NCBI GenBank assembly: GCA_020638655.1
Contig: JACKIC010000003.1
Coordinates: 136,990-200,989, forward strand
DNA from: Planctomycetota bacterium
Lineage (GTDB): Bacteria > Planctomycetota > UBA1135 > UBA2386
Length of the DNA stretch: 64,000 nucleotides
Direction of reading: 5' to 3'
In this document: positions 6,529 through 24,082 of the stretch, in pieces
Numbering within the stretch: the stretch's first letter is position 1
Layout: each line of letters starts with the position of its first letter
Notes under the pieces: generated by a model
Seen by the model: the letters and a program-made list of their open reading frames with translations, nothing else
Told to the model about the DNA's origin: nothing
Databases searched by the model: none
Translations under genes and position numbers: made by a program

Positions 6529-6908
6529 GAGTCGGCGCGGGGCCGGCAGATCAGCCGGTCCAGCGCCAGCGCCAGGACCGCGCCCAGCGCGTAGGCCACC
6601 AGGTCGGCCCACTGAAAACCCTGGCCGAGCAGCAGCGCGCCGACGCGGGTCGAGCGCAGGGCGGCGAGCCAGGCCCAGTCGAGCAGCTGGCTGACCTCGA
6701 CCAGCGCCGACAGGCCCCACGCGAGCACCGCCAGCGCGAGCGGCCGTGCCGCGGGCTGCGCGCAGGCGAGCGCCCAGAACACGGCGACTGTGTAGAGCGC
6801 GTCGCCGGTGTGCTCCGCGAACCAGCCCGGCAGCGGAAACGCCCGCGACAGCAGCCCCAACGCGATGGTCGCGCCCAGGGCGAGGAGGTACGGCAGCCGC
6901 GCGGTCAT
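6525..6908 (-). CDS. DUF2809-family small membrane protein
   Basis: ATG at 6908. It has four hydrophobic helices with the family-like landmarks GDALYTV and VEVSQLL...LLGQGFQWADLVAY. Its start overlaps the upstream stop in an ATGA (6905-6908). Confidence 0.7.
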   Translation of the reverse strand: MTARLPYLLALGATIALGLLSRAFPLPGWFAEHTGDALYTVAVFWALACAQPAARPLALAVLAWGLSALVEVSQLLDWAWLAALRSTRVGALLLGQGFQWADLVAYALGAVLALALDRLICRPRADS

Positions 6909-8162: not shown

Positions 8163-9968
8163 ATGTTCTTCCCACCCATGGTCGAGAGTGTCGTCGACAG
8201 GTTCGAAGCGGTGGTCGCGGCACACGCCGACCGACCGGCGCTGACGTTCCGCCGCGGGCCGACCTGGCAGTCCCTGACCTACGGCCGGTTGCGCGAGCGG
8301 GCCGCAGCCATCGCCGAGCAGCTGCGCAGCGCCGGGGTGCAGGCGGGCGACGCGGTCGTCGTCGTGGCGCGTCGGCACCCGGACACGATCGCGACCTTCC
8401 TCGCGGCCCTGCGTCTGGGCGGCTACTACGTGCCCGTCGATCCGCGCGATCCGCCGGCGCGGCGGCAGTTGGTCTTCGACGCCGTGCGCGCCGAAGTCCT
8501 CGTCGAGCCGTCGCCAGATGAGGGCCCGCAAGGGGATGTGGAGCAGGGGCCGCGGATGTCGCGGCGGCAGTTCGGAGGAGTTCGCCAGCCGGGGCGGCCC
8601 GAGTCCGGGAACGCGGCCGCAGAGCAGCCGGTCTACGTGATGTTCACGTCGGGATCGACGGGGCGACCGAAGGGGGTGGTCGTGCCGCACCGCGCGATCG
8701 TGCGGCTCGTCACCGGGCAGGACTACCTGCGTTTCGACCACGGGCGCGTCTTCCTGCAGTCGATCCCGCTCGCCTTCGACGCCTCGGGGCTCGAGATCTA
8801 CGGTGCCCTGTTGCACGGCGGCAACCTGGTGCTGTTCCCGACGGACATGCTGCCGAGCCCGGCGGGGCTGCGCGAGGTCGTCGCCGCGCAGCGCGTCACC
8901 ACGGCCTGCTTCACCGCGCCTCTGTTCCACGCGCTGGTGGACGGTGACGTCACCTGCATGCGCGGACTCGAAGAGATCGTCGTCGGCGGCGAGCGCCTGA
9001 GCGTGCCGCACGTCCGGCGGGCGCTCGAGGCGCTGCCAGGAACGCAGCTCGTCAACGGCTACGGCCCCACCGAGAACGGCGTGCAGTCGACCAGCTATCG
9101 CATCCCGTCCACGCTGCCTGCGGCGGCGCGCGTGCCGATCGGTGTGCCGCTGCGCGGCACCGAGGTGATCGTCGTCGACGAGCAGTTGCGCGAACAGCCG
9201 GTCGGCGTGCCCGGTGAGCTGGTCGTCCTCGGCGATGGCCTGGCGCTGGGTTACCTCGACGAGTCGCCCGCGCGGGGTTCGGCCTTCGTGACCTTGGAGC
9301 GGCGCGGGCAGCGGCAGCGCGCCTACCGCACCGGCGACCGCGGCGTGCAGCTCGCGGACGGCAACTTCGACTTCCTCGGGCGCATCGATCGACAGGTGAA
9401 GATCCAGGGACACCGCGCCGAGCCCGAAGAGGTCGAGCGGGTGTTCGCCGGTCTCGACGGCGTGACGGCGTGCCGCGTGGTGGTGGCTCAGGATCCCGCC
9501 GGCGTCGCGCGTCTGGTCGCCTACGTGGTGCTGGCCGCGGGCGCGGAGCTCGCGGCGGTGTCGGCAGCGGCGGCGGCCCAGTTGCCGTCGTTCCTCGTGC
9601 CCGGTCAAGTCGTCGTGTTGACGGCCCTGCCACTGGGCAACAACGGCAAGGTCGACGACGCGGCGCTGCCCTCGCCGTGGGCGGCAGCGGCGGCGAAGGT
9701 CGAGGCTGCCGTGCCATCCGCTCCCGCAACGACGCCGGCGGCGCTGCGACGCGCCGTCCAGGCGGCCTGGCGCGAAGTCCTCGGCCGGGATCCGGCCGGC
9801 GCCGCAGGCTTCTTCGAGGCCGGCGGACGCTCGCTCGACGCCGTGCGCCTGCACGAGCAACTCGAACGCGCGAGCGGTCGCGCGCTCGAGCCGACGTTCG
9901 TCTACGAGTTCCCGACGCTGCAGCGTCAGGTGGAGGCGCTGACCAAGATGGTCGAGGGAGGGTCGTGA
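8163..9968 (+). CDS. NRPS adenylation-thiolation (A-T) didomain protein
   Basis: A-domain cores present: MFTSGSTGRPKGV, FDASGLE, NGYGPTE, YRTGD, GRIDRQVKIQGHR and NGKVD. The carrier motif is FFEAGGRSLDAV (Ser codon ~9831). The ORF opens at TTG 8127, ATG 8163 is preferred, and ATG 8178 is also possible. Confidence 0.9.
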   Translation: MFFPPMVESVVDRFEAVVAAHADRPALTFRRGPTWQSLTYGRLRERAAAIAEQLRSAGVQAGDAVVVVARRHPDTIATFLAALRLGGYYVPVDPRDPPARRQLVFDAVRAEVLVEPSPDEGPQGDVEQGPRMSRRQFGGVRQPGRPESGNAAAEQPVYVMFTSGSTGRPKGVVVPHRAIVRLVTGQDYLRFDHGRVFLQSIPLAFDASGLEIYGALLHGGNLVLFPTDMLPSPAGLREVVAAQRVTTACFTAPLFHALVDGDVTCMRGLEEIVVGGERLSVPHVRRALEALPGTQLVNGYGPTENGVQSTSYRIPSTLPAAARVPIGVPLRGTEVIVVDEQLREQPVGVPGELVVLGDGLALGYLDESPARGSAFVTLERRGQRQRAYRTGDRGVQLADGNFDFLGRIDRQVKIQGHRAEPEEVERVFAGLDGVTACRVVVAQDPAGVARLVAYVVLAAGAELAAVSAAAAAQLPSFLVPGQVVVLTALPLGNNGKVDDAALPSPWAAAAAKVEAAVPSAPATTPAALRRAVQAAWREVLGRDPAGAAGFFEAGGRSLDAVRLHEQLERASGRALEPTFVYEFPTLQRQVEALTKMVEGGS

Positions 9969-12900
9969 GCTCTGCCGACGAGTCGTTGCCCCCGCACGCG
10001 ATCGCCGTGGTCGGGTTCGCCGGGCGGTTCCCCGGCGCGCCGGACGCGGAGTCGTTGTTCGCCAACCTCTGCGCGGGACGCGAAGGCGTGACGTTCTTCC
10101 GCGACGAAGACCTCGATCCGTCGATCGCCGCGGCGGTGCGCAACGCCCCCGACTACCGCAAGGCGCGCGGCATCCTCGCCGACTACGACTGCTTCGACGC
10201 CGACTTCTTCGGCATCCTGGCGTCCGAGGCCGAGGTCATGGATCCGCAGCATCGCCTGCTGCTCGAACTGTCGTGGGCCGCGCTCGAGCGCAGCGGGCAT
10301 CGGCCGACCGACTGCGGCGGTCGCACCGGTGTCTACCTCGGCGCGCAGTGGAGCCACTACCTGCGGCACAACGTCTCGACCCGCGCCGACGTGCTCGAAC
10401 GCTTCGGCGAGGGCAACGTCACGCTCGCGAACGAGCAGGACTTCCTGGCGACCAGGGTGTCCTACCGGCTCGGACTGCGCGGCCCGAGCTTCACCGTCAC
10501 CACGGCGTGCTCGACGTCGTTGGTCGCGATCGCGCAGGCCGCCCGGGCGTTGCTCGACGGCGACTGCGACCTCGCGCTCGCGGGCGGGGCATCGATCGTC
10601 GTGCCGGTGCGCTCCGGCTACCGCTACGAGCCCGGCAGCATGCTGTCGGCCGACGGCCACTGCCGCCCGTTCGACCGCGCCGCCGCGGGCACGACCTTCG
10701 GCGACGGCGCCGGGGTGGTGGTGCTGCGGCGCCTCGCCGACGCCATGGCCGACGGCGACCCGATCCACGCGGTGATGCGCGGCTTCGCGGTCAACAACGA
10801 CGGCGACGACAAGGTCAGCTTCACGGCGCCGAGCATCTCGGGGCAGACCGCCGTGCTGAGCGCCGCCCTCGGGCACGCGCAGGTCGATCCGCTCTCGGTC
10901 GGCTACGTCGAGGCCCACGGCACCGCGACGCCGATGGGGGACCCGATCGAGTTCGCCGCGCTGACGCGCGCCTATCGCGGGCTCGAGCCGGGGGCTCCGC
11001 CGTGTGTGATCGGTTCGGTGAAGAGCTCGGTGGGGCACCTCGTGCACGCGGCGGGCGTCGCGGGCTTCCTCAACGCGACCTTCGCGGTGCGCGACGGTGT
11101 GCTGCCGCCGACGCTGCACTTCCAGGAACCCAATCCCCGGCTGCAGCTCGAACGCACGCGCTTCCGCGTCGCGCCGCAACCGCAGCCGTGGAACGTCGGC
11201 GCCGGTCCTCGGCGCGCGGCGGTGAGCTCGTTCGGGGTCGGTGGCACCAACGCCCACGTCGTGCTCGAGGAGCCGCCGCCACAGCCGGCGCCGTCGGCCG
11301 ACAGCGGCCCGCAGTGGCTGCGCCTCTCGGCGCGCACGCCGGCGGCGCTGCAGCGGCGCATCGACGACCTGCGGACCTACCTGGAACAGGCGGGCGTCGA
11401 GGTGCGGCTCGCGGACGTGGCGCACACGCTGGACGTCGGCCGCGTGCCGATGCGCCACCGCGCCGCGGTGCGCGCCGACTCGGTCGAGGATGCCCTGCGC
11501 GCGATGGCCGATCCGCGGCGCCTGCGTCGCGGTGAGGCGACGGAGGTCCGGGACGTCGTGCTGCAGTTCCCCGGGCACGGCGTGCAGCGCATCGGCATGG
11601 CCAGGTGGTTGCACGCGGAGTTCCCGGCGAGCCGCGAGCGCATCGAGGCCGGCATCGCGCACGTGCTGCGCAGCGGCGGGCCCGATCTGCGCGCGGTGTT
11701 GCTCGGCGGTGCACCGGCCGCGGCGCTCGACGACGTGCTGCTGGCGCACCCGGCCCTGTTCGTCTGCGAGTGTGCGCTCGCCGACGCGCTCGCGGCGCTC
11801 GGGCTGCGGCCCGCGGCGGTGCTGGGTTGCAGTCTCGGCGAGTTCGCGGCCGCGACGGTCGCCGGTGTGGTGTCGTTCGAGGACGCGCTCACCGCGGTCG
11901 TGGCCAGCGGTCGGGCGATCCTGGCGACGGCGCCGGGATCGATGTTCACGGCGTACTGCAGCGAGGACGAGGCGCGCGCGCTGGCCGGGGACGCGGCCAT
12001 CGCCGCGGTCTACGACGACGACGCCGTCGTGTTGTCCGGCGAGGCACAGGCGGTGGCCGAGGCGCGACAGCGCTGCGAGAGAGCGGGCGTGCGCACCGCG
12101 CCGCTGCGCGCCGATCGCGGCTTCCACTCACCGCTCATGGCATCGGCGGTGGCCGAGCTGGAGCGCGTGTTCGCCGCCCTGACCTGGCGGGCGCCGGGTC
12201 TGCCGATGTTCTCGGCGGCCGTCGGCGGCGCGTTGTCTGCCGAATCGGCGCAATCGCCGCGCCACTGGGCCGGCATCCTGAGCGCGCCGGTTCGCTATCG
12301 GGATGCGCTCACCGCGCTCGGTGAGCAGGTGGCGCACGTGCTGGTCGAGACGGGGCCGGGGGTGAGCCTCACCGCGGTCGCGTTGCAGCGCCGCGCGGGG
12401 GCCGTGCCGGTGGCGGCGATGCCCGGGTCGGGCGCCGATGCCATGACGGTCGCCGACCTGCGCGCCGTCATCGCGCACTGCTGGGCGAATGGCGTCGAAG
12501 AGGCCGCGTCCGTCCAGGTGCCACCTTCGCCGCGGCGCCTGTCGTTGCCGAGCTATCCGTTCGCGCGCACGCGGCACTGGCTGCAGCCGGGAACGGTCGT
12601 CGCTGCCGGATCGCCAGCCGGTGCGGACGCTGCGGAGGACCTGCAACGTGCCGACGCCGGCGCGCGGTTGGCGGCGATCCTCGAAGGGGCCACGGGCATG
12701 TCCGTGCCGTTGACCGAGGACCGGCACTGGGCGGAGCTCGGCTTCGACTCCCTGGTGACGACGCAGGTCGCGATCGGCGTGCGGCGGCAGTTCTCGGTCG
12801 AGCTGGGTTTCCGCGATCTGATGGAGCGGCTGACGTCGCCGCAGGTGCTGTTGGCCTGGCTCGAGGACGTGGCCCCGGCGGTCGAGGCGCCGGCGCCCGC

Positions 12901-14503
12901 GGCGCCGACCTCCGCCGCGGCCACCTCGCCCTCCGCGTCCGCTTCGGCGGCTGCGCCGCGGCCGAGCCCCGGCGCCCGCATCGAGCGCACGGTGTCGGAC
13001 CGCTACAAGACGACGCCCGAGCAGCAGCAGTTCCTGGCGCGCTTCTGCGCCGACTACGCGCAGCGCACCGCGCGTTCGAAGGCGTTCGCGCAGGAGCACC
13101 GCCGCCAGCTCGCCGATCCGCGCACGGTGACCGGGTTCCACCCGTCGTGGAAGGAGATCGTCTACCCGATCGTCACCGAGCGCTCGCGCGGCTCGCGGCT
13201 GTGGGATCTCGACGGCAACGAGTACATCGACCTGCTGAACGGTTTCGGCAGCATCCTGTTCGGTCACTCGCCCGACTTCCTCACCGAGGCGGTGCGCGCC
13301 CAGCTCGAGCGCGGCATCGAGATCGGGCCGCAGTCGGCGCTCGCCGGCGAGGTCGCCCGCCTGTTCTGCGACCTGACGGGCAATGAACGCGTGGGCTTCG
13401 CGAACACCGGGTCCGAGGCCGTGACGGCGGCGCTGCGCATCGCGCGCACGGTCACGGGGCGCGACAAGGTCGTGATGTTCGAGGGGTCCTATCACGGCAT
13501 CTTCGACGAGGTCCTGGCGCGGCCCGGGTTCGGCGGCGGGGTGTCCCCGGCATCGCCCGGGGTGCCGCAGTCGCACGTCGGCGAGATGGTCGTGCTGCCC
13601 TACGGCGAGCCGGCCAGTCTCGCGGCGATCGAGGGCATGGCCGGGCAGCTGGCCGCGGTGCTGGTCGAACCGGTGCAGGGGCGCAATCCCAACCTGCAGC
13701 CTCGCGAGTTCCTGCAGCGGTTGCGCGAGATCACCAAGGCCAACGGGTGCGCGTTGATTTTCGATGAGGTGGTCACCGGTTTCCGCGCACACCCAGGCGG
13801 CATCCAGGCTCTGTTCGGCATCGACGCCGACATCGCCCTGTATGGAAAGGTCGTCGCCGGGGGACACCCGATCGGCCTGGTCGCCGGCAAGGCGCGCTAC
13901 CTCGACGCCCTCGACGGCGGTCACTGGAGCTTCGGCGACGACAGCGTGCCCGAGGTCGGGGTCACGTTCTTCGCCGGGACGTTCGTGCGCCACCCGATCG
14001 CCCTGGCCGCGGCGCGCGCGACGCTGCAGCGCATCGCCGAGGAAGGGCCGGGGCTGCAGGAAGCGCTGGCCGCGCGCACGGCCGGGATGATCGCGCAGCT
14101 CCAGGAGTGCCTGCTGCAGAGCGGCGTGGGGATCAGCGTCGGCACCTTCCGCTCCGCCTTCTACTTGTCGGTGAAGTCCGATGAGCCTTGGGGTAGCTTG
14201 CTGTTCGCAATGCTGCGCCACCGGGGAATCCACATCTGGGAGCAGTTCCCGTGCTTCCTGACCACGAGCCACACCGACGACGATGTGGCCGTGTTCGTGC
14301 GCCACTTCCGCGACAGCATCGCCGAACTGCAGCGCGTCGGTCTGCTGACACCGGCCCCGGCGCGTCCGCGCGCGGCGGTGGATCGGCCGCCGCTCGCCGG
14401 TGCGCGGTTGGGGCAGCGCGCCGACGGCACCCTGGCCTGGTTCGTCCCGGACCCCGGGCGTCCCGGCCGATACCGCGAAGTCGCGGACGCGGAGTTGCCT
14501 TGA
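9965..14503 (+). CDS. Type I PKS module with C-terminal class-III aminotransferase: KS-AT-ACP-AMT
   Basis: GTG 9965 overlaps the upstream TGA (GTGA). KS motifs are TACSTSLVAI (Cys ~10508), EAHGTATPMGD and GSVKSSVGH. AT motifs are GCSLGEF (Ser ~11831) and GFHSPLM. The ACP motif is LGFDSLV (~12748). AMT motifs are NTGSEAV, LIFDEVVTGFR and YGKVVAGGHP (Lys codon 13847-13849). No KR, DH or ER domain is seen. Confidence 0.9.
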   Translation: MSSADESLPPHAIAVVGFAGRFPGAPDAESLFANLCAGREGVTFFRDEDLDPSIAAAVRNAPDYRKARGILADYDCFDADFFGILASEAEVMDPQHRLLLELSWAALERSGHRPTDCGGRTGVYLGAQWSHYLRHNVSTRADVLERFGEGNVTLANEQDFLATRVSYRLGLRGPSFTVTTACSTSLVAIAQAARALLDGDCDLALAGGASIVVPVRSGYRYEPGSMLSADGHCRPFDRAAAGTTFGDGAGVVVLRRLADAMADGDPIHAVMRGFAVNNDGDDKVSFTAPSISGQTAVLSAALGHAQVDPLSVGYVEAHGTATPMGDPIEFAALTRAYRGLEPGAPPCVIGSVKSSVGHLVHAAGVAGFLNATFAVRDGVLPPTLHFQEPNPRLQLERTRFRVAPQPQPWNVGAGPRRAAVSSFGVGGTNAHVVLEEPPPQPAPSADSGPQWLRLSARTPAALQRRIDDLRTYLEQAGVEVRLADVAHTLDVGRVPMRHRAAVRADSVEDALRAMADPRRLRRGEATEVRDVVLQFPGHGVQRIGMARWLHAEFPASRERIEAGIAHVLRSGGPDLRAVLLGGAPAAALDDVLLAHPALFVCECALADALAALGLRPAAVLGCSLGEFAAATVAGVVSFEDALTAVVASGRAILATAPGSMFTAYCSEDEARALAGDAAIAAVYDDDAVVLSGEAQAVAEARQRCERAGVRTAPLRADRGFHSPLMASAVAELERVFAALTWRAPGLPMFSAAVGGALSAESAQSPRHWAGILSAPVRYRDALTALGEQVAHVLVETGPGVSLTAVALQRRAGAVPVAAMPGSGADAMTVADLRAVIAHCWANGVEEAASVQVPPSPRRLSLPSYPFARTRHWLQPGTVVAAGSPAGADAAEDLQRADAGARLAAILEGATGMSVPLTEDRHWAELGFDSLVTTQVAIGVRRQFSVELGFRDLMERLTSPQVLLAWLEDVAPAVEAPAPAAPTSAAATSPSASASAAAPRPSPGARIERTVSDRYKTTPEQQQFLARFCADYAQRTARSKAFAQEHRRQLADPRTVTGFHPSWKEIVYPIVTERSRGSRLWDLDGNEYIDLLNGFGSILFGHSPDFLTEAVRAQLERGIEIGPQSALAGEVARLFCDLTGNERVGFANTGSEAVTAALRIARTVTGRDKVVMFEGSYHGIFDEVLARPGFGGGVSPASPGVPQSHVGEMVVLPYGEPASLAAIEGMAGQLAAVLVEPVQGRNPNLQPREFLQRLREITKANGCALIFDEVVTGFRAHPGGIQALFGIDADIALYGKVVAGGHPIGLVAGKARYLDALDGGHWSFGDDSVPEVGVTFFAGTFVRHPIALAAARATLQRIAEEGPGLQEALAARTAGMIAQLQECLLQSGVGISVGTFRSAFYLSVKSDEPWGSLLFAMLRHRGIHIWEQFPCFLTTSHTDDDVAVFVRHFRDSIAELQRVGLLTPAPARPRAAVDRPPLAGARLGQRADGTLAWFVPDPGRPGRYREVADAELP

Positions 14504-17500
14504 CCGCAGCCGAAGACCCCGTGGTGCCCGAACACGATCCCTTTCGTTTCGGTGCGATCGCGCAGGTGGTGCCGACCACCGATGCGCAGCGCGAGGTGCT
14601 CGCGGCGGCGGCGCTCGGCGATCTCGCCAACTGCGCCTACAACGAGGCGGTCTCGATCCGCCTGACCGGTGCTCTCGATGCGACCCTCGTCGAGCGCGCG
14701 CTCGCGGCGCTCGTCGATCGCCACGACGCCTTGCGCGCGTCGTTCACGCCGCAGCTCGACGCGATGTGCATCCGCGCCGAGGTCGCGGTGCCGCTGCAGC
14801 GCAGCGACCTCACGGCGCTCGAGCCGAAGGCGCGCGAGCTGGCGGTGCAGGCGGCGCGGCGCGAATGCGTCAGCACGCCGTTCGCGCTGGTGCAGGGCCC
14901 GCTGCTCCGCGCGCACTGGTTGCAGCTCGGTGCCGATTCGGCCGAGCTGCTGCTGGTGGCGCATCACGCCGTCTGCGACGGCTGGTCCTACCACGTGCTG
15001 CTGCGCGACCTCGAGCAGCTGTGTGGGGCGTCGGGTGGCGCGCCGGCGACGCCGGCGCCGTCGTTCGCGGAATTCGCCGTCGAGCGCGCCGCCGGCGCAG
15101 GGCGGGCGCACGGCGGCTACTGGCTGCGCAAGTTCTCGACCACGCCGCCGCCGCTCGACCTGCCCCTGGATCGCCCCAGAGGCCCCCAGCGCGCGTTCGC
15201 GGCCGAGCGCGTCGAGCGACTGCTCTCGCCGCAGGTGCGGCTGCCCGCGCTCGCCAGCGCGCTGCGCGTCAGCCCGGTGACCGTGGTGGTCGCCGGCGTG
15301 GCGGCGCTGCTGCACCGGCTCACCGGCAACGAGGACCTCGTCCTGGGCATGCCGGTCGCGCGTCAGGCGCTCGAGGACCGCGGCGGCCTGGTCGGGCACT
15401 GCGTGCAGCTGCTGCCCGTGCGGCTCGGCGTCGACGGGGACACGCCGTTCGCGGCGCTCGCGGCCGCCGCGCAGAAGGAGGTGCTCGACGCCACCGAACA
15501 CTACGACTTCACCTTCGGCAGCCTGGTGCAGGCGCTGCGACGCTCCGGCGACGCCGGGCGCGTGCCGCTGATCCCCGTGCTGGTCAACATCGACCAGCCC
15601 GCCGAGGAGCTGCAGATCGGCGCGGCGCGCGGCGCGGTGGCGACGGTGCCGCGCGTGGCCGAGAGCTTCGAGGTGTTCTTGAACGTCGTGCCGCAGGCGG
15701 GCGGCTTCCTGCTCGAGGCGACGTTCCAGTCGGAGCTGTTCGACGCGGCGAGCGTGTCGACCTGGCTCGCGGCCCTCGAGCAACTGCTGATCGGCGCCGC
15801 CGCCGCGCCGCAGGCCGCGATCGGATCGCTGGCGCTGCAATCCGCGGAGGATGTCGAGCAGGGCGCGGTCGGCGCTGCAGTGCCGCTGCGGTTCACGCAC
15901 TGGTTGCAGGCTCTGCAGCAGGTGGTTGCCAGCAGTCCCGACGCGGCAGCCGTGCGCGACGATCAGGGAGTGCTGAGCTACGCCGCGCTGTGGCAGCGCA
16001 TCACCGCGCTCGCGGCCGACCTGCGCCGGCGCGGCGTCGGGCGGGGCGACGTCGTCGGCCTGTGTGTCGGGCGGTCGCGTTCGCTGGTCGTCGCGATGGC
16101 GGCGGTGCACGCCTGCGGCGCGGCCCATCTCCCGCTCGATCCGTCGTTCCCGATCGCGCGGCTGCGGCAGCTGCGCGAAGACTCGGGTGCGGCGCTGGTC
16201 GTCGTGGACGCGGAGGGAGCGGCGCTCGGCCTGGGTGCCGAGTGCCTCGACCTCGACGCGGTCGCCGCGGACCGGGCGACGGGGGAGGCGATGCCGGAGG
16301 CGCCGCCGAACGGCGACGACGCCGCCTACCTGATCTACACCTCGGGCTCCACCGGCGTGCCCAAGGGCGTGAAGGTCTCGCACCGCTCGTTGGCCAACCT
16401 GCTGGCCGGCGTCGCCGTCGCGCCCGGCTTCTCCGCGGCCGACACGTTGCTGGCCGTCACCACGATGTCGTTCGACATCTCGCTGCTCGAGCTGCTGTTG
16501 CCGCTCACGGTCGGCGGCTGCGTCGCCGTGGCGCCGCGCGCCGAGGTCGAGGATCCGCAGAAGCTCGCCGCGCTGTTGCTCCGGCACCGCGCGACCGTGA
16601 TGCAGGCCACGCCGGCGACCTGGCGCATGCTCGTCGACGACGGCTGGAGCGGCGCCGCCGATCTGGTCGCGTTCTGTGGCGGCGAGCGCCTGCCCGTGGA
16701 GCTGGCGCGCAGCCTGCTGCCGCGCGTGCGCGCGCTGTGGAACCTCTACGGACCGACGGAGACGACCGTGTGGTCGACGGTGGCGCAGGTCCTCGACGCG
16801 GACGCGGCGCCCGGCATCGGCCGCCCCCTGCAGAACAGCTCGGTGTTCGTGCTCGACGGTCGCGGCGGCGTCCTGCCGCGCGGTGTGCCCGGCGAGCTGT
16901 GCATCGGCGGCGAAGGCGTCGCGATCGGCTACCACGAGCGGGAGGAACTGACGGCGGAGCGCTTCTTCGTGCATCCCATCCTGGGGCGCCTGTATCGGAC
17001 CGGTGACCGGGGGCGTGTGCGCCCGGACGGGACGCTCGAGTGCTTCGGGCGCGTCGATCAGCAGGTGAAGGTGCGGGGCTATCGCATCGAGCTCGGCGAG
17101 ATCGAGGCCGCGCTGCGCAGCTGTGCGGATGTGGTGGAGGCGGTCGTGGTCGTGCAGGGTGATGACGCGCAGGCCGCCCGCCTCGTCGGGTTCGTGGTCA
17201 CGTCGTCCGGCGCGTTGCCCGACGGTTGGCGCGAGCAGCTGCAGCGCACCCTGCCGGTCTACATGGTGCCGCACCAATTGGCGTTGCTGGCTGCGCTGCC
17301 CCGCCTGCCCAACGGCAAACTCGATCGGCGCGCCTTGCCGACGCTGACCGCCACGACCCAGGATGCCGCGTCGTTCGTCGAACCCGCGACGCCCGAAGAG
17401 CGGCTGGTTGCGACCGAGATGGCGGCCGTGCTGGGCGTCGAGCGCGTGGGGGCGACCGAGGACTTCTTCGCCGCGGGAGGGCACTCGCTGCTCGCGGCGC

Positions 17501-20058
17501 AGCTGGTGGTGCGCCTCAACCGCGCGTCGGCGGGTGACCTCACGATGCGTGCGGTGTTCGAGGCGCCGACGCCGCGCGCCCTCGCCGCGCGGCTCGGCAC
17601 CGAGACCGGGGACCGGCTGCCGCGGGTGGTGCGGCGCGCGCGGCGGGACGTGGCTCCCGCCACGCTCGTGCAGGAGCGCATGTGGCATCTCGAGCAGATG
17701 GCCACCGGTCGCAACGGCTACAACCTGCCCTCGGCGCACCGGCTTCGCGGCCCGCTCGACGAAGCCGTGCTGCTGGCGGCGCTGCAGGAGATCGTCAACC
17801 GGCAAGCCGCCCTGCGCACCACCTTCGAGCGGCGCGACGGCGCGGTCTGGCAGGTCGTGCACGAACACCTGCGCCTGCAGTGCCCGCCGCTCGAGGATCT
17901 GTCCGAGCTGCCGCCCGCGGAGCGGCAGCGCCGGCTCGAGGCACGGCTCGACGAGTTGGCCGCGGAGTCGTTCGACCTGGGGCGCCTGCCGCTGTTCCGG
18001 CTGCAGTTGTTCCGCCTCGCCGCCGACGAGCACGTGTTCTTCTTCATGCCGCACCACGTCATCTGGGACGGTTGGTCCTTCGACCTGCTGTACCAGGAGA
18101 TCGACGCGCTGTACGCCGCGTTCGCGGCCGGGCAGCCGTCGCCGCTGCCGGCGCTGACCATCGAGATGGGGGACATCGCGCAGTGGCAGCGCGATCGGCA
18201 GGCGTCGCCTGCCGCGGCGCAGCGCGTGCGCATCGTCCGCGAGCGGCTGGAGCGCTTCGGTCCGGTGCGGCCCCTGCCCGTCGACCACGGCCGCAGGCCC
18301 GGCATGTCGGGGCGCGGCGCGTGCGAGTGGCTCAACCTGTCTGCCGACGTCGCCCGCGCCCTGCACGAGTTCGCCGGCGCGCGCGGCCTGACGCTGTTCC
18401 ACACCTCGCTCGCGATCTACGCCGTGCTGCTGCACGAGTATTCGCAGCAGTCCCGCGTGCTGTTGGCGACGCCGGTCCGCGGCCGCAACACGCCGGAGCA
18501 GGAAGCGGTCATGGGCTGCTGCAATACGCTGGTGCCCGTGCCGCTCGACGTCGGCGCGCAGGCCAGCTTCGACAGCCTGGCCCGCGCGGTGCGGGCGACG
18601 GTGCTCGAAGGCCTGGCCACCGCGGACGTCACGCTCGAACAGCTCGGCGGCGCCGGGGCGCGCCGGGGCTCGGTGCTCTACCAGGCGCTGTTCTCGTTCC
18701 AGGACGTGCGCGGGCGCCGCACCTGCTGGGGGCCGCTGGAGCACGAGATGATCCCGCTGTTCCAGCGCGGCGCGACCGAGGACCTCGGCCTGTGGTTCGT
18801 GGAGCGCGAGAACGGACTCGACGGCGTGCTCACCTACAACGCGGACACGCTGGACGGCGCGACGGTGCGCCGCCTTCGCGATCGATTCACCGAACTCGCC
18901 TCGGCCCTGGTGGCGGCGCCGCAGGAGTCGTTCGTCGGGCTGCTGCACGAAGTCGCTGCCGTCGCCGCGGAGTCCGAGCCGCAGTCCGAGCCGGAGCCGG
19001 ACCGGTCGGCACCCGCTGTGACCGAACCCGCCGCCGACGCGCCGGCGGCGCCGCTGCCGCAGGCCGAGGACTTCGAGCTGATCCTGACGCGGATCTGGCG
19101 CGAGATCCTCGGCGTGCCTGAGGTCGGGCTGCACGACGACTTCTTCGAACTCGGCGGCAACTCCCTGACCGCGATCCGGTGCGTCGATCGCTTCGAAGCG
19201 GCGACGGGCCTGATGATCGATCTCGGCGAGGTGTTCCGCTCGCCGACGGTGGCGCAGCTGGCTGCATCGCTGGCGTCGCGTTCGCAGCGCTCGGGGCCGA
19301 TGTTGATCCCGCTGCAGGAGCGCGGCGACGAGCCGCCGCTGTTCTGCCTGTTGGGCATCCAGATCTACCGCCACCTGGCCCACGGTCTGGGTGAGCGCCA
19401 GCCCGTCTTCGGCGTCTACGTGCCCGAGGAGCAGGGCATGGTCGAGGGGCTGCCGGGTTCCCGCTCGTCGTCGGTGTCCATCGATCGGCTCGCCGACGCC
19501 TATGTCGAGGTGATCCGCAGCAGTCACCCGAGCGGGCCCTACCGCCTGGCGGGGCTCTCGTTCGGCGGCGTGGTGGCGCTCGAGGTGGCCCGGCGTCTGG
19601 TCGCGCTCGGCGACGCAGTCGATCGTGTGGTGCTGCTCGACACGATCTTGCCCCAGAGCTTCCGGCGCCGCTGGTGGCACGTGCCGGCGCGCTCGTGGCT
19701 GCGGTCGCTGCGCGCCGCCGCCCGGAGCTTCGCGGGGCTGGTCACGAGGCGCAACGGCAGCGAAGACTCCGCGGGCAGGCCGCGGCACGACCACGCGTTC
19801 CGCAGCGTGCAGGCGGCGATGCAGCGTGAGGTGCTCCGGTGGCAGGCCTCGTTCGTACCGCCGCCCTGTCCGGTCCTGTTGCTGCGGGCGCGAGACAACT
19901 GGTGGGGACGCGGCTACGTCGCGCTGCCCGACTACGGTTGGGGCGGCATCATCGGCCCTTCGCTGCAGGTGCAGTCGATCCCGGGCGACCACCTGGGCAT
20001 CCTGCTGACGCCGGATCTGGGCGATCTGGCGCGCGCCGTGACCGCGTTCCTGGCGTGA
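14500..20058 (+). CDS. NRPS: C-A-T-C-T-TE
   Basis: TTG 14500 overlaps the PKS TGA (TTGA), but the start is approximate. C1 is HHAVCDGWS (~14962). A-domain cores are IYTSGSTGVPKGV, NLYGPTE, YRTGD, GRVDQQVKVRGYR and NGKLD. T1 is AGGHSLLA (~17485). C2 is HHVIWDGWS (~18052) and is followed directly by T2 (LGGNSLTA, ~19162) with no A domain. TE is GLSFGG (~19558) plus PGDHLG. Confidence 0.9.
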   Translation: MTAAEDPVVPEHDPFRFGAIAQVVPTTDAQREVLAAAALGDLANCAYNEAVSIRLTGALDATLVERALAALVDRHDALRASFTPQLDAMCIRAEVAVPLQRSDLTALEPKARELAVQAARRECVSTPFALVQGPLLRAHWLQLGADSAELLLVAHHAVCDGWSYHVLLRDLEQLCGASGGAPATPAPSFAEFAVERAAGAGRAHGGYWLRKFSTTPPPLDLPLDRPRGPQRAFAAERVERLLSPQVRLPALASALRVSPVTVVVAGVAALLHRLTGNEDLVLGMPVARQALEDRGGLVGHCVQLLPVRLGVDGDTPFAALAAAAQKEVLDATEHYDFTFGSLVQALRRSGDAGRVPLIPVLVNIDQPAEELQIGAARGAVATVPRVAESFEVFLNVVPQAGGFLLEATFQSELFDAASVSTWLAALEQLLIGAAAAPQAAIGSLALQSAEDVEQGAVGAAVPLRFTHWLQALQQVVASSPDAAAVRDDQGVLSYAALWQRITALAADLRRRGVGRGDVVGLCVGRSRSLVVAMAAVHACGAAHLPLDPSFPIARLRQLREDSGAALVVVDAEGAALGLGAECLDLDAVAADRATGEAMPEAPPNGDDAAYLIYTSGSTGVPKGVKVSHRSLANLLAGVAVAPGFSAADTLLAVTTMSFDISLLELLLPLTVGGCVAVAPRAEVEDPQKLAALLLRHRATVMQATPATWRMLVDDGWSGAADLVAFCGGERLPVELARSLLPRVRALWNLYGPTETTVWSTVAQVLDADAAPGIGRPLQNSSVFVLDGRGGVLPRGVPGELCIGGEGVAIGYHEREELTAERFFVHPILGRLYRTGDRGRVRPDGTLECFGRVDQQVKVRGYRIELGEIEAALRSCADVVEAVVVVQGDDAQAARLVGFVVTSSGALPDGWREQLQRTLPVYMVPHQLALLAALPRLPNGKLDRRALPTLTATTQDAASFVEPATPEERLVATEMAAVLGVERVGATEDFFAAGGHSLLAAQLVVRLNRASAGDLTMRAVFEAPTPRALAARLGTETGDRLPRVVRRARRDVAPATLVQERMWHLEQMATGRNGYNLPSAHRLRGPLDEAVLLAALQEIVNRQAALRTTFERRDGAVWQVVHEHLRLQCPPLEDLSELPPAERQRRLEARLDELAAESFDLGRLPLFRLQLFRLAADEHVFFFMPHHVIWDGWSFDLLYQEIDALYAAFAAGQPSPLPALTIEMGDIAQWQRDRQASPAAAQRVRIVRERLERFGPVRPLPVDHGRRPGMSGRGACEWLNLSADVARALHEFAGARGLTLFHTSLAIYAVLLHEYSQQSRVLLATPVRGRNTPEQEAVMGCCNTLVPVPLDVGAQASFDSLARAVRATVLEGLATADVTLEQLGGAGARRGSVLYQALFSFQDVRGRRTCWGPLEHEMIPLFQRGATEDLGLWFVERENGLDGVLTYNADTLDGATVRRLRDRFTELASALVAAPQESFVGLLHEVAAVAAESEPQSEPEPDRSAPAVTEPAADAPAAPLPQAEDFELILTRIWREILGVPEVGLHDDFFELGGNSLTAIRCVDRFEAATGLMIDLGEVFRSPTVAQLAASLASRSQRSGPMLIPLQERGDEPPLFCLLGIQIYRHLAHGLGERQPVFGVYVPEEQGMVEGLPGSRSSSVSIDRLADAYVEVIRSSHPSGPYRLAGLSFGGVVALEVARRLVALGDAVDRVVLLDTILPQSFRRRWWHVPARSWLRSLRAAARSFAGLVTRRNGSEDSAGRPRHDHAFRSVQAAMQREVLRWQASFVPPPCPVLLLRARDNWWGRGYVALPDYGWGGIIGPSLQVQSIPGDHLGILLTPDLGDLARAVTAFLA

Positions 20059-20091
20059 GCCGAACGCCGTGGCCCCGGTGCCGTGGCCGGG

Positions 20092-20203
20092 ACTGATTCC
20101 TTCCGTGGTGCACTTGCGTCGGTTCGACGCGGCGACTGGACTTACGACCGGTATCGGGGTTCCAGGGCGGCGGTTTGCCGCGTACGCCACGGAAGGAATC
20201 AGT
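20092..20203. repeat. Perfect 17-bp inverted repeat (ACTGATTCCTTCCGTGG ... CCACGGAAGGAATCAGT) with 78-nt spacer
   Basis: The arms are 20092-20108 and 20187-20203, read directly. It lies between the NRPS stop (20058) and the FG-GAP gene start (20317). The arm sequence recurs at 42240-42255. Confidence 0.85.
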
Positions 20204-20316
20204 GCTGTGTGGATGCTCTCGACCGCACGAGTCCGGTCGGGGGGGCGGTTCTCCTGTTCGCCGAACCTCCATAACATGACGCGCTCGCATTCTCGCCACG
20301 CCATTCGAATCAAGCC

Positions 20317-22140
20317 ATGCAACGCCTACTGTTCGTACTCTCTCTCAGCGGTGCCTGCTTCGCCCAGGCACCATCGGTGGTCTCCACTTCGCCGTCAGCA
20401 TTCGGGATCACGGGGCCGTTCGACCCGATCGAGGTGCTGTTCGCCGCGCCCATCGACCCGCTGACGGTGACGCCGCACAGCTTCGCGGTGTTCGGCCACT
20501 GGACCGGTGTGGTGCCGGGAACCCTCAGCGTCGACGCATCCAATACGCGGATCACGTTCCAGCCGACGCGGCCGATCTTCGTCGGCGACGCCGTGCACGT
20601 CGATCTCGCGGCGTCGATCGCCGCGCCCGGTGGGCTGGGCCTGCCCGGCGGACATCACTTCGAGTTTCTGGTGCGCACCGCGCCGGGCAGCGGCGTGTTC
20701 CAGTCGACCCAGACGATCTCGTTCCGCCTGCCCAACGAGGGCCAGATCTCGACCTACGGCATCCACGCCGGTGACGTCGACCGCGACGGCGCGCCCGACA
20801 TCACCGCGATCAACGAGTACTCGCACGACCTGCGCACCTTCCACAGCGACGGGTGCATGACCTTCGGGCCGATGGTCCAGGTCGCCGACGGTCAGAACTG
20901 GCCGAGCCCGCACGAGAGCGCCGACTTCAACCGCGACGGTTGGATGGATCTGGTCACGGGCGATTACGCGTTCGGCAACGTCTCGGTGTTCATGAACGAC
21001 GGCGCGGGCAACTACACGGCTCCGATCACCCTGGTGGGCGGCAACTACGTGCGCAGCGTCGGCGCCGGCGACCTCGACGGCGACGGCTACCCCGACGTGG
21101 TGGCGGGCAACGGCGGCACGACCCTGGTCTGGCTGAACAACGGCTCGGGCGGCTTCCTGCCGCCGGTGCTCTACTCCGGGCCCAACGGCAGCGCCGAGCT
21201 CAACCTCGTCGACGCCAACGAGGACGGCCACCTCGACATCGTGTCGTGCAACCTCGTACCTGGCCAGACGTGGGTGATGCTGGGCAACGGCGACGGCACG
21301 TTCACCGGCAACGCGACGCTGACGAACATCGGCGGGGCGCCGTTCGCCAGCGCGGCCGGCGACCTGAACGGCGACGGCCACGTCGACCTCGCCTACTGCT
21401 GCCACAACCCCGATTCGTTCACGTGGATGCTCGGCGACGGCGCCGGCGGCTTCGTGCTCGGTGGCTCGATGGCCGCCGGTGGCGGCCCGACCTCGGTGCA
21501 TCTGGGCGATCTCGAGGGCGACGGCGATCTCGACGCCGTCATCTCGCACTACTACTCGGGCGACTTCTACGTCTACCTCAACAACGGGCAGGGCAGCTTC
21601 GCGGCTCCCTACATCCTGCCCGCGGTGTCCGCGGCCGCGTGCACCACGCTCGCCGACTTCGATCGCGACGGCGACCTGGACATCATGGTGGCCGACGAGA
21701 ACGCGGACGTCGGCATCCTCTACTCGCAGCAGAGCCTGCCCGTGCCGGGCATCCAGCCGTCCGACTGTGACGCGACGCTGCGAATCGACCAGCGCGCCGA
21801 CGGCGCCGGCTTCGGCGGCCGGCCGGCGGTGCCCGTGCACATCGGCAACCAGATGGCGCTGTCGGTGTCCGGACCGCCCAACGCGTTGACGCTGCTGGCG
21901 GTGGGCTTCCCGTCGACGGTGAGCGTGCAGCTCGCGCACCTCGGGTTGATGAGCTTCGATCAGACCCTGCCGCTGGCCATCATGCAGGTCACGCTGCTCG
22001 ATCCGAACGGCGAGTTCAACCGGCCGTACTCGTTGCCGCTGTGGGTGCCGTCCGGCTTCGTCATGTGCCTGCAGGCGGGCGTGCTGTCGCCGACGCGCGA
22101 ACTGTTGACCAACCCGATGCAGTTCGTCATGGTTCCGTGA
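20317..22140 (+). CDS. Exported FG-GAP/VCBS repeat protein with N-terminal Ig-like (SbsA/Big_5-type) domain and C-terminal recurrent module (Cys-less variant)
   Basis: The signal peptide is MQRLLFVLSLSGACFAQA. There are multiple D-x-D/N-x-DG-x-x-D repeats (DVDRDGAPDI, DFNRDGWMDL, DLDGDGYPDV, DANEDGHLDI, DLNGDGHVDL, DLEGDGDLDA, DFDRDGDLDI). The C-terminal ~120 aa align with the tails of 49964-51499 and 51563-52762(-). Confidence 0.85.
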   Translation: MQRLLFVLSLSGACFAQAPSVVSTSPSAFGITGPFDPIEVLFAAPIDPLTVTPHSFAVFGHWTGVVPGTLSVDASNTRITFQPTRPIFVGDAVHVDLAASIAAPGGLGLPGGHHFEFLVRTAPGSGVFQSTQTISFRLPNEGQISTYGIHAGDVDRDGAPDITAINEYSHDLRTFHSDGCMTFGPMVQVADGQNWPSPHESADFNRDGWMDLVTGDYAFGNVSVFMNDGAGNYTAPITLVGGNYVRSVGAGDLDGDGYPDVVAGNGGTTLVWLNNGSGGFLPPVLYSGPNGSAELNLVDANEDGHLDIVSCNLVPGQTWVMLGNGDGTFTGNATLTNIGGAPFASAAGDLNGDGHVDLAYCCHNPDSFTWMLGDGAGGFVLGGSMAAGGGPTSVHLGDLEGDGDLDAVISHYYSGDFYVYLNNGQGSFAAPYILPAVSAAACTTLADFDRDGDLDIMVADENADVGILYSQQSLPVPGIQPSDCDATLRIDQRADGAGFGGRPAVPVHIGNQMALSVSGPPNALTLLAVGFPSTVSVQLAHLGLMSFDQTLPLAIMQVTLLDPNGEFNRPYSLPLWVPSGFVMCLQAGVLSPTRELLTNPMQFVMVP

Positions 22141-23267
22141 CCGGTGCCGCGACCGGCACCGGGGTGCGCCGCCGGCACCGGCGCGGCGTCCTAGTCGCGT
22201 TGTCGGCGCTGCTGCTGATCATGGTCGCTTCTGCAAGCCTGGCTGGCAGCGGATTGCTCGCCGACTCCTACCGCGTGCGCGCCGCCGACGACCGGCGCGT
22301 GCCGCTCGCCGTGCTCGGGGACTCGGACAGTCACGGCTACCGCGACAGCCTGGCGTTCCCTCCGGGTTCCGCGGCGCGCGGCGGCCGGTACCGCCAGGCC
22401 GCGGCGCAGTGGACCGAGGTCCTGGACGAGCTCGCCGGCGATCGGGTGGACTGCGGCGACTTCGGCATCTGGGGCGGGCGGCAGAGCGTCGTGCGGGCGC
22501 TCGAGGCGATCGGCTGCGAGCGCCGGGCCCCGCGCAAGCAGGACCACCAGTTCAACCTGGCCTTCAGCGGCGCGCGCTGCGCGGACCTGCTGCGGGGCCC
22601 GCGGCGGCAGGTGCCGCGGCTGTTGACGCTGATGGCGGAAGAACCGGCGCGGTGGCGCGGCGGCGTGGTCGTGATCCGGATCGGCATCGTCGACCTGGGC
22701 GGAGAACCGCAGCTCGATCGGATGGCGACCGACCCCGACGACGCGGAACTCGCGGCGACCGTCGCGAGCTGCATCGCGGACATCACCGCCGCGCGCGCGG
22801 CGATCCGGGCGGCGCACCCGCAGACCCGGGTCGTGCTCGTCGGCCTGTTCGACAACGCCGAGGTGCCGTCGTTCCAGGAGCGCTGGCGCACGCGGCTGGC
22901 GACCAGCAACCGGCGCGCCGTGCTCGACCGCTTCGACGGCGCGCTGCGGGCGCTCGCGGCGGCGGATTCGCTCACGGCCTTCTTCGACGATCGCGCGTGG
23001 TTCGCGGCGCGGTGGGGCGGTCGCGACGACGACGGTGTGCCCGCGTATCGCGCCGTGCAACTGGCCGGCCTGCGGGTCGAGCACGGCGCCGGCGACGAGC
23101 CGACGCACACCGCGTTGGCCGACGGTCACGCCGGACTGGTCGTGAACGCGGTGTGGGCCCAGTCGCTGTCGCGGTTGTTGGCCGAGGAGCTGCAGCTGCC
23201 GGTGCGGCCGATCACGGACGCCGAGGTCGAGACCTTCGTGCGTGGGCGCTACCCTGCTGCACGCTGA
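22137..23267 (+). CDS. Putative SGNH/GDSL-like hydrolase, membrane-anchored
   Basis: GTG 22137 overlaps the upstream TGA (GTGA). The N-terminal anchor is VLVALSALLLIMVASASLAG. Block-I-like LGDSDSHGY is present, with a later ADGHAG that may be block V. The assignment is tentative. Confidence 0.5.
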   Translation: MTGAATGTGVRRRHRRGVLVALSALLLIMVASASLAGSGLLADSYRVRAADDRRVPLAVLGDSDSHGYRDSLAFPPGSAARGGRYRQAAAQWTEVLDELAGDRVDCGDFGIWGGRQSVVRALEAIGCERRAPRKQDHQFNLAFSGARCADLLRGPRRQVPRLLTLMAEEPARWRGGVVVIRIGIVDLGGEPQLDRMATDPDDAELAATVASCIADITAARAAIRAAHPQTRVVLVGLFDNAEVPSFQERWRTRLATSNRRAVLDRFDGALRALAAADSLTAFFDDRAWFAARWGGRDDDGVPAYRAVQLAGLRVEHGAGDEPTHTALADGHAGLVVNAVWAQSLSRLLAEELQLPVRPITDAEVETFVRGRYPAAR

Positions 23268-23272
23268 CCCGC

Positions 23273-24082
23273 ATGACCTTCGACACAGCCCACCGCCTGA
23301 TCGATCGATTCGCCGACCTGCCCGGACTGCGCGGCTGGCGGCGCCGGCGCTACGAGTTGCGCTTCCAGGGGCGGCTCGGGCACGCCTTCTGGGGCGTGCA
23401 CCCGACGTTCGCGGCGGCGGCGGCGGCGGTGCCCGCGGGGTTGCCTGGCGACTACGACAACGACGAGGCCGCGGGGCTGTACGTCGAGCGGGTGCAGGTC
23501 GACGACCACGATCGCGCGCCGCTGTTCTGGCTGCTCGAGGCGCTGGTGAGGGGCGCGCGCCGGATCTGCGATCTCGGCGGCAGCACCGGCATCAAGTACT
23601 ACGCCTTCGCGCCGCTGCTGAAGCCGGCCGCGGCCGTGAACTGGCACGTGATCGAGGTCCCGGCTGCGGCGGCGCTCGGCGCGCGCCTCGCCGCGCAGCA
23701 CGGCGTCGGCGACCAACTCACCTTCGGCAGCGACCGGGCAGCGGCCTCGGGTTGCGACGTCCTGTTCCTCTCCGGCGCGCTGCAGTACCTGCCGCAATCG
23801 CTCGGGCAGATCCTCGCCGCGCTGACCGAGAAGCCGCGGCGCGTGCTCGTCAACACCACGCCGATCCACCCGCACCGCTCCTACTTCACGCTCAACAACA
23901 TCGGCGCCGCGTGCTGTCCGTATCGGGTCACGGCGCGCGGCGAATTCGTCGACGAGGTGGTCGCGCAGGGCTACGCGCTGCGCGACGAGTGGCGGAACAT
24001 CGGCAAGTGCCTCGAGCTGCCGTTCGATCGGGACCTCTCGATCGAGCACTACTCCGGCTTCTGCTTCGAGCGGCAGGGTTGA
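23273..24082 (+). CDS. Putative SAM-dependent methyltransferase (TIGR04325 / LIC12133-like family)
   Basis: ATG 23273 lies 5 nt after the upstream stop. Family-like landmarks are DLGGSTGIKYY, WHVIEVPAA, LFLSGALQYLPQ and LVNTTPIH. The long upstream extension of ORF 22409-24082 is Arg-rich and was rejected. Confidence 0.6.
   Translation: MTFDTAHRLIDRFADLPGLRGWRRRRYELRFQGRLGHAFWGVHPTFAAAAAAVPAGLPGDYDNDEAAGLYVERVQVDDHDRAPLFWLLEALVRGARRICDLGGSTGIKYYAFAPLLKPAAAVNWHVIEVPAAAALGARLAAQHGVGDQLTFGSDRAAASGCDVLFLSGALQYLPQSLGQILAALTEKPRRVLVNTTPIHPHRSYFTLNNIGAACCPYRVTARGEFVDEVVAQGYALRDEWRNIGKCLELPFDRDLSIEHYSGFCFERQG

Follow-up and report, generated by a model that had tools for sequence, protein, structure and literature searches.

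The present study concerns a 64,000-nucleotide stretch of DNA from a Planctomycetota bacterium (GenBank assembly GCA_020638655.1, contig JACKIC010000003.1, positions 136,990 to 200,989), hereafter referred to as the window, in which three open reading frames (ORF1 to ORF3) encode a hybrid nonribosomal peptide synthetase (NRPS)-polyketide synthase (PKS) assembly line. Judged from its sequence, this line is intact and self-contained. The reading that is favored here, though with some reserve, is that the line would be primed with an amino acid, would aminate the resulting ketide by a reaction of the type carried out by MycA, and would build a diaminoacyl-Gly-Gly chain that is then released by a thioesterase (TE). 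This proposal draws on the domain order, the intact catalytic motifs, the homology of the aminotransferase (AMT) domain to that of MycA, the specificity codes of the adenylation (A) domains, family-wide conservation, and the descent of the last condensation (C) domain.

Gene layout and domain organization

The three synthetase genes lie on one strand of the window, which has a G+C content of approximately 72%, and successive genes overlap by GTGA (9965-9968) and TTGA (14500-14503). Pfam assigned the domains AMP-binding, AMP-binding_C, and PP-binding to ORF1; ketoacyl-synt N/C, the linker between ketosynthase (KS) and acyltransferase (AT), Acyl_transf_1, PP-binding, and Aminotran_3 to ORF2; and two Condensation domains, AMP-binding, two PP-binding domains, and Thioesterase to ORF3. 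Coordinates, domains, and overlaps agree with the initial annotation, which had described three translationally coupled genes with the order A-T (T = thiolation), KS-AT-ACP-AMT (ACP = acyl carrier protein), and C-A-T-C-T-TE; the motifs that it had quoted (LAFDASGLE, YGKVVAGG, and DRGFHS) were each found in the translations. No ketoreductase, dehydratase, or enoylreductase domain was detected by Pfam in ORF1 to ORF3, as had been noted for the PKS module. The three genes contain no frameshifts or stops, and all catalytic motifs are present. A promoter and terminator scan gave no signal above chance. Because the same genes recur in other genomes with different flanks (47-84% ORF2 identity), the pattern is not a chance arrangement of ORFs.

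Starter module

The A domain of ORF1 (A1) is of the NRPS type: its best matches in the PDB are LgrA and SrfA-C, it scores 352 bits against TIGR01733, its A4 core (LAFDASGLE) contains Asp235, and Lys517 is present as well. The ten specificity residues of each A domain were taken from MAFFT alignments anchored on core motifs, which yielded the code DALCVGGVQK for A1, common to the window and its closest relatives, and DILQFGLVWK for the A domain of ORF3 (A2). Relatives of ORF2 are encoded in at least 568 stretches found in a scan of species-representative genomes, and the family-wide domain maps and A codes reported here were drawn from the best 80 of these. Across these roughly 80 related loci, most starter codes are DALWLGGTFK or DAFWLGGTFK, presumably valine codes according to the Stachelhaus table, and other subfamilies carry DVQFIAHVVK, DFWNIGMVHK, and DVWHLSLIDK, which we take to be of the Pro, Thr, and Ser types, respectively. 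The A1 code reads as a variant derived from the Val code by W278C, L299V, T330V, and F331Q; these replacements imply a pocket larger than that for Val, and the substrate of A1 is probably a larger relative of valine.

From the NRPS type of A1 and the amino-acid codes of its relatives, it follows that the amino-acid primer proposed earlier holds, and does so for the whole family. Priming with a fatty acid, as in iturin synthesis, was also considered and was ruled out by the NRPS-type A1 with Asp235 and Lys517 and by the Val, Pro, Thr, and Ser codes of the relatives. In most relatives, the A-T pair is fused straight onto the KS, while in the window it forms a separate protein directly upstream.

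Ketosynthase and aminotransferase

In an alignment of 18 homologues of ORF2, the KS residues C182 (TACSTS), H318 (EAHGTAT), and H358 (KSSVGH) are invariant, as are the lysine of the AMT domain that binds pyridoxal phosphate (PLP), K1295 (YGKVVAGG), and the aspartate D1267 (FDEVVTGF). An inactive KS or AMT, which the initial annotation had named as fatal to its proposal, is thus not what was found, both motif sets being intact. Over its C-terminal 493 residues, ORF2 aligns with the entire length of the MycA aminotransferase domain (6KFM, 6KFU) at a score of 424 bits, and the YGK lysine and DEV aspartate align with those of MycA; glutamate-1-semialdehyde (GSA) aminomutases reach at most 190 bits, and the AMT also matches HemL models (246 bits). 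The AMT can therefore be placed with the MycA-type beta-keto aminotransferases, as had been suggested. The MycA domain moves an amine from Gln to an ACP-bound beta-keto thioester, according to the part of PMC3870968 that cites Aron et al. By analogy, the same reaction on an aminoacyl-primed ketide would give a 3,4-diaminoacyl thioester.

ORF2 ends in a tail of approximately 45 amino acids (residues ~1466-1512; 14360-14500) with the consensus ...PPVxGARLGRRxDGxxAWFVPDPxRPGKYREV. The tail is conserved in stand-alone KS-AT-ACP-AMT proteins, and may be a docking element for ORF3.

The altered acyltransferase

The AT of ORF2 departs from the canonical malonyl-type motifs GQG, GHSxG, Arg117, and HAFH at every one of these sites (FabD numbering). 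GHG replaces GQG at the Gln11 site, GCSLG replaces GHSxG at the His91 site, the carboxylate-binding Arg117 corresponds to Ser648 in alignments to solved PKS ATs, and the HAFH motif reads RGFH (within DRGFHS), with the Phe kept. The nucleophile Ser623 and the catalytic His721 are retained. The initial annotation had called this AT malonyl-type from its GFHS motif; the Phe of xAFH is indeed present, but the malonyl-binding Arg117 is gone, together with Gln11 and His91, so the assignment stands only in part.

In a tally of approximately 208 ATs of the superfamily, 185 are fully canonical and 22 are variant, the latter being the clade of the window. Within this clade, Gln11 is replaced by H, L, N, or Y, Arg117 by S, G, A, I, V, or L, and His91 by an invariant Cys, while the nucleophilic Ser and catalytic His are invariant in 22/22 sequences. 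Most members carry Arg at the first HAFH position, which is absent in three. At equal KS divergence, the variant ATs are less conserved than the canonical ones by about 2 standard deviations, e.g., AT identities of 0.40-0.47 versus 0.53-0.59 at KS identities of 0.62-0.68. One relative (L006; locus labels refer to stretches from other genomes unless stated otherwise) has the same gene order as the window, yet its AT is canonical.

Peptide modules and release

The A2 code is one that we take to be a glycine code, as read against the Stachelhaus table, and a Gly-type code is found in the first module after the AMT in approximately 50 of 74 lines. The C, T, and TE motifs of ORF3 are all conserved in seven orthologues. 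In the terminal C-T-TE part, HHxxxDG, GGxS, and GxSxG with its Asp and His are intact, and no A domain lies between C and T. A tree built from 129 C domains groups the second C domain of the window (C2) with other A-less C2 domains in a clade of 17 members (support 100). This clade is sister (support 89) to C2 domains that all precede Gly-type A domains, and the next branch beyond also contains a Gly module. Given this descent of the A-less C-T module from a Gly module, a (3,4-diaminoacyl)-Gly-Gly chain is predicted. The simplest reading would be that the A domain of a former C-A(Gly)-T module has disappeared, with A2 now supplying both carrier domains (T1 and T2); terminal modules without an A domain can work, as in AmbB/AmbE and SyrB1/SyrE. 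Overall, the C-A-T-C-T-TE order with its intact motifs is consistent with the earlier proposal that one or two amino acids are added before the TE releases the chain.

One member of the A-less clade, that of Luteibacter (L078), still has a degenerate A domain between C2 and T2 at ~19561-21000, with 31% identity, the code PMIIVGLPAE, and neither Asp235 nor Lys517. This relic looks like an intermediate stage of A-domain loss. The features of the cluster are listed in Table 1.

Table 1. Positions of the assembly-line genes, their domains, and the downstream genes in the window
Feature	Position	Strand	Description	Basis
ORF1	8163..9968	+	Stand-alone loading module A1-T0, 601 aa	Pfam, TIGR01733, PDB matches, extracted code
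A1	~8202-9650		Starter A domain
T0	~9753-9941		GGRSL
ORF2	9965..14503	+	KS-AT-ACP-AMT, 1512 aa, GTG start	Pfam, junction sequence, 18-homologue alignment
KS	9998..11122	+	Intact Cys-His-His set	Pfam, translation
AT	11567..12379	+	Non-canonical	Family alignment, alignments to solved PKS ATs, tally, divergence
ACP	12665..12862	+	GFDSL	Pfam PP-binding, translation
AMT	13022..14359	+	Class-III PLP aminotransferase domain, MycA type	PDB match 6KFM, invariant residues
ORF3	14500..20058	+	C1-A2-T1-C2-T2-TE, 1852 aa, TTG start	Pfam, junction sequence, motif conservation
C1	14560..15852	+	HHAVCDGWS; condensation domain after AMT	Pfam, C-domain tree, motif conservation
A2	15916..17319	+	DILQFGLVWK, presumably glycine type	Extracted code
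T1	17392..17589	+	GGHSL	Pfam, motif conservation
C2	17722..19029	+	HHVIWDGWS; module without A domain	Pfam, motif conservation, tree
T2	19084..19266	+	GGNSL; no A domain between C2 and T2	Pfam, domain mapping, motif conservation
TE	19360..20055	+	Ser in GLSFGG, Asp in LLDT, His in GDH	Pfam, motif conservation
Big_5 + FG-GAP repeat protein	20317..22140	+	Overlaps hydrolase start at 22137-22140	Pfam
SGNH/GDSL hydrolase	22137..23267	+	Membrane-anchored or exported, 376 aa	Pfam, alignment, AF2 (AlphaFold2) model
TIGR04325-family methyltransferase	23273..24082	+	269 aa	NCBIfam, 179 bits vs cut-off 80
EamA/DMT transporter	24149..25060	+	YedA-like, possible exporter	Pfam, NCBIfam

Proposed pathway and alternative explanations

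The chemistry predicted from this domain content, including how T2 is charged, which extender is used, and what the accessory genes do, would proceed as follows: I) A1 would adenylate an alpha-amino acid and load it onto T0; II) the KS would take the aminoacyl group and a C2 extender on the ACP to give a gamma-amino-beta-ketoacyl thioester; III) the AMT would turn the beta-keto group into an amine, giving a 3,4-diaminoacyl thioester, i.e., a vicinal diamine; IV) C1 would couple the diaminoacyl unit to Gly on T1; V) C2 would couple the resulting chain to a further residue carried by T2, for which Gly charged by A2 is the likeliest candidate; VI) the TE would free the chain by hydrolysis or cyclization; and VII) the cytoplasmic TIGR04325 methyltransferase, the EamA exporter, and the extracytoplasmic SGNH esterase or transferase would probably modify, export, and process the product. 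A bolder version, which is considered rather unlikely, holds that the product is a methylated vicinal-diamino acyl-Gly-Gly from a hitherto undescribed class of metabolites, which is exported and either processed by the SGNH hydrolase or transferred by it to an envelope or extracellular acceptor, in a broadly Dlt-like or prodrug-like logic, and that the AT of this clade, with Arg117 lost and an invariant Cys gained, has been retooled for a non-standard unit.

Several points weigh against the amino-acid-primed, diamine-forming route. The gamma-amino-beta-ketoacyl thioester could, on chemical reasoning, lactamize before it is aminated. To our knowledge, DALCVGGVQK corresponds to no substrate code. 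The AT belongs to a clade that has lost the malonyl-carboxylate Arg, Gln11, and His91 and that diverges faster than canonical ATs, so loading of malonyl is not assured and the extender unit is uncertain. T2 lacks a dedicated A domain and would most likely be charged by A2; two proteins encoded elsewhere in the genome could also load a carrier in trans, namely, an A-T-TE tridomain protein of 858 aa (G000:C12, L097:1408-3984) and a lone A-domain protein of 539 aa (G000:C7, L100:1408-3027).

The AT gives rise to an alternative that is unlikely but carries real weight: it may load a non-malonyl unit, in which case the backbone would differ from a plain C2-extended diamino acid, or it may act as a transacylase or hydrolase while FabD malonylates the ACP in trans. 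This would fit the replacement of three canonical positions in 22 sequences whose Ser and His never vary, set against 185 canonical ATs in the rest of the superfamily, and the alignment of Ser648 opposite the Arg of solved ATs. Loss of the corresponding Arg in R606 mutants of fatty acid synthase (FAS) reportedly shifts the acyltransferase (AT or malonyl/acetyltransferase, MAT) from dicarboxylic to monocarboxylic acyl groups, as is said to have been found by Rangan and Smith, and loading ATs and VinK-type ATs likewise exemplify the loss of Arg with such a shift. However, since the KS keeps its full decarboxylating Cys-His-His set, a malonyl-type unit on the ACP would still be needed; moreover, the Arg at the first HAFH position might compensate for the missing one in most clade members, although not in the three that lack it, and the sister cassette L006 combines the same gene order with a canonical AT. 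The same AT substitutions, with the faster AT divergence and the missing A domain of the last module, could instead indicate a decaying cluster without any product. This is hardly credible given genes free of frameshifts and stops, catalytic Ser, His, Cys, and Lys residues that persist in orthologues from several genomes with identities as low as 47-53%, and a variant AT pattern that is itself conserved, with Cys, Ser, and His invariant throughout the clade.

The A-less T2 could also be served by A1-T0 rather than by A2, with the KS being primed by some other acyl group. ORF1 is indeed a separate protein, and there are precedents in AmbB, which charges T2 of AmbE, and in SyrB1/SyrC, which supply the final module of SyrE. 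This is nevertheless improbable, because A-T is fused directly before the KS in the majority of superfamily lines, it stands right before the KS in the window too, as judged by gene order and the GTGA coupling, and the nearest A-bearing relatives of C2 carry Gly codes, not the code of the starter. An even more improbable scenario is that the AMT acts as an aminomutase on the alpha-amino ketone, moving the amine to give a beta-amino-gamma-keto acid and no diamine. GSA aminomutase converts an alpha-amino carbonyl by way of a vicinal diamine, the substrate proposed here carries a neighboring amine that the MycA substrate lacks, and HemL models do match the AMT; yet the AMT is far nearer to MycA than to any aminomutase, and MycA is a net transaminase with Gln as donor according to the same part of PMC3870968. 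Amino-acid priming by A1, amination to a vicinal diamine, and addition of two Gly residues is kept as the preferred reading.

Comparison with known systems

MycA and ItuA of mycosubtilin and iturin synthesis in Bacillus (AL-ACP-KS-AT-ACP-AMT-C-A-T, in which AL is an acyl ligase) share with the window the order KS-AT-ACP-AMT followed by C and an AMT of full-length homology in which the PLP Lys and the Asp are conserved, and the expected reaction would be the same, i.e., conversion of a beta-ketoacyl-ACP into a beta-aminoacyl-ACP. With MycA-type modules, the window thus has the AMT position and the KS catalytic set in common, but not the canonical AT or the fatty-acid priming. They are primed by a fatty-acyl ligase, whereas the window has an NRPS amino-acid A domain with Asp235; in addition, the line in the window is split into three proteins, its AT lacks the malonyl-binding Arg, and the predicted product is a short diamino peptide instead of a lipopeptide. 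McyE and NdaF of microcystin and nodularin synthesis resemble the window in architecture, with an in-line AMT at the PKS-NRPS junction followed by C-A-T-C (KS-AT-ACP-AMT is listed for this module type in PMC9783101), but they are mid-line modules acting on a long polyketide (Adda) and their A domain activates Glu.

AmbB/AmbE, which make the antimetabolite AMB (2-amino-4-methoxy-trans-3-butenoic acid) in Pseudomonas aeruginosa, and SyrB1/SyrE also have a final A-less C-T-TE part that is loaded from elsewhere, but they contain neither PKS nor AMT, and in the window the comparison points to the neighboring Gly-type A2 and not to a separate A-T. A further likeness, by analogy only, is found in BioF and BioA of biotin synthesis (7-keto-8-aminopelargonic acid to 7,8-diaminopelargonic acid, KAPA to DAPA), in which a Claisen reaction turns an amino acid into an alpha-amino ketone, from which a class-III aminotransferase forms a vicinal diamine, as proposed for the window. 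These enzymes are free-standing and act on free acids, and BioF is a PLP oxoamine synthase where the window would use a KS. Among reported lines, flavipulchrin is a fatty-acid-primed, iturin-like case (PMC12819058), and the floridanemamide preprint describes hydroxy-acid-primed cyanobacterial lines. Orphan amino-acid-primed architectures were already listed in 2013, i.e., the Pedobacter 'Nrp-Mal-Gly' and Thiocapsa lines (PMC3870968, Table 2). No characterized product or pathway of the amino-acid-primed superfamily was found in the open-access literature.

Distribution in other genomes and host genome

Full-length homologues of ORF2 were found at 83, 80, 65, 58, and 53% identity, in addition to thousands of weaker matches and one truncated copy of identical sequence. 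Synteny covers the entire neighborhood in the close relatives L001 and L003, while in L004 (58%), L005 (53%, a Planctomycetota metagenome-assembled genome), and L006 (47%, an 8.8-Mb genome) the gene trio is kept in order between unrelated flanking genes. Among 40 relatives, the distribution is patchy: of the three further genomes in the genus, two have a full-length orthologue, as does a single genome from another family. The 80 mapped loci belong to Planctomycetota, Verrucomicrobiota, Bacteroidota, Acidobacteriota, Cyanobacteria, Xanthomonadales, Variovorax, and Aquabacterium, and share the plan A-T-KS-AT-ACP-AMT-C-A-T followed by a variable tail. With an NRPS starter A-T directly before KS-AT-ACP-AMT and a Gly-type code after the AMT, the window is a member of this superfamily: it has the same domain logic, and the TIGR04325 and SGNH partners that recur elsewhere in the superfamily are also present. 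Its clade differs in the variant AT and the Val-derived starter code, and the window itself is a stand-alone three-gene version.

Some members deviate from the shared plan. In L042 (669-6386), separate genes encode the KS-AT (669-3572) and ACP-AMT (4242-6386) parts of the PKS, and a gene for a 201-aa GDSL-like fragment (3544-4149) lies between them; the TE of this locus has Cys for the nucleophilic Ser (GLCAGG), and a gene for a family 2 glycosyltransferase (GT2) overlaps the end of the NRPS gene. The cyanobacterial loci L015, L043, L051-L058, L061, and L066 have an extra 1-4 kb between AMT and C1, which in L043, L051, L052, and L066 includes a TIGR04325-like methyltransferase, and the last A code in most of these cyanobacterial loci is the unusual (D/N)(T/S)ENMGALTQ.

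The genome of the window measures 5.18 Mb and is 83% complete; no other PKS or NRPS condensation domain was found in it. The initial annotation had seen no phosphopantetheinyl transferase (PPTase) or MbtH gene nearby, which holds for the window; one PPTase gene of Sfp length, which could activate the carrier domains, lies on another contig, and MbtH was not found in the 83% complete genome. A second PKS-AMT was considered but rejected, the only other Aminotran_3 match being a 1483-aa protein without PKS domains. In this ORF (G000:C1, L093:7276-11727, minus strand), the sole Pfam match is a C-terminal class-III aminotransferase at residues ~1238-1437, and the first ~1200 residues are unmatched.

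Neighboring genes and extent of the cluster

The initial annotation had confined the cluster to three genes. While this core was confirmed, the limit is doubtful in view of the co-conserved SGNH hydrolase and TIGR04325 methyltransferase, which are probably accessory enzymes of the cluster. Because both genes recur beside such lines, the cluster probably extends to ~25060. The SGNH hydrolase has an N-terminal helix at residues 9-38, and its blocks I, II, III, and V (GDS, Gly, Asn, and DxH, i.e., G61-D62-S63, Gly, N140, and D329/H331) are invariant in the alignment; the AF2 model has a mean predicted local distance difference test score (pLDDT) of 94.7, and the nearest folds are GDSL acetylesterases and ChoE, which are esterases of small esters. 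Homologues adjoin related lines in L003, L004, L046, L047, and L031. Moreover, when three members of the SGNH family were chosen independently of the PKS search, two turned out to adjoin an A-T-KS...AMT megasynthase directly (L110 of Caldimonas thermodepolymerans and L112 of Planctomycetota), which was not so in L111. In L112, a methyltransferase gene comes after the SGNH gene. TIGR04325 homologues lie at most 10 kb from the cassette in 18 further loci, in addition to L112, and these 18 span Planctomycetota, Xanthomonadales, Cyanobacteria, Acidobacteriota, and others. A sequence search of solved structures with the hydrolase and the methyltransferase returned nothing useful.

For the remaining two downstream genes, the conservation is narrower. 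Homologues of the Big_5/FG-GAP gene were found by tblastn only in L001 and L003, and its membership in the cluster is doubtful because it is conserved in close relatives only; the position of the EamA gene is likewise conserved only in close relatives. Taken together, methylation, export, and extracytoplasmic de-esterification or transfer would be plausible roles for the accessory genes. No glycosyltransferase or sugar-nucleotide genes lie within approximately 10 kb of the cluster in the window, which sets it apart from superfamily members such as L110, where genes for a UDP-glucose dehydrogenase and an epimerase are next to the line, and L042 with its GT2 gene.

Hundreds of species-level genomes, which span Planctomycetota, Verrucomicrobiota, Bacteroidota, Acidobacteriota, Cyanobacteria, and Proteobacteria, encode beta-aminating NRPS-PKS lines primed with an amino acid. 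Among building blocks, a vicinal diamine produced on such a line would be unusual, and it could bind metals or inhibit proteases by mimicking a transition state. With three synthetase genes and approximately three accessory genes, the window represents a minimal and tractable version of such a line. It also offers two natural experiments, namely, an AT without the malonyl clamp that is still under selection, and a module that lacks its A domain while one relative retains the relic. A solved pathway would also reveal what two enzyme families do, namely, the TIGR04325 methyltransferases and a family of SGNH proteins with at least 390 members.

Upstream of ORF1 and divergent from it lie a DUF2809 gene (6525-7088, minus strand) and a gene for a 323-aa protein without a family match (6905-7876, minus strand). 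L003 has both at this position and L001 has the DUF2809 gene there, whereas neither is kept in place in more distant cassettes. Further upstream, an FG-GAP protein is divided by one in-frame TGA into 5104-5493 and 5503-6528. As the same two-gene arrangement is present in L001 (5970-6296 and 6306-7343) and L003 (3584-3904 and 3914-4948), this split is not a recent break.

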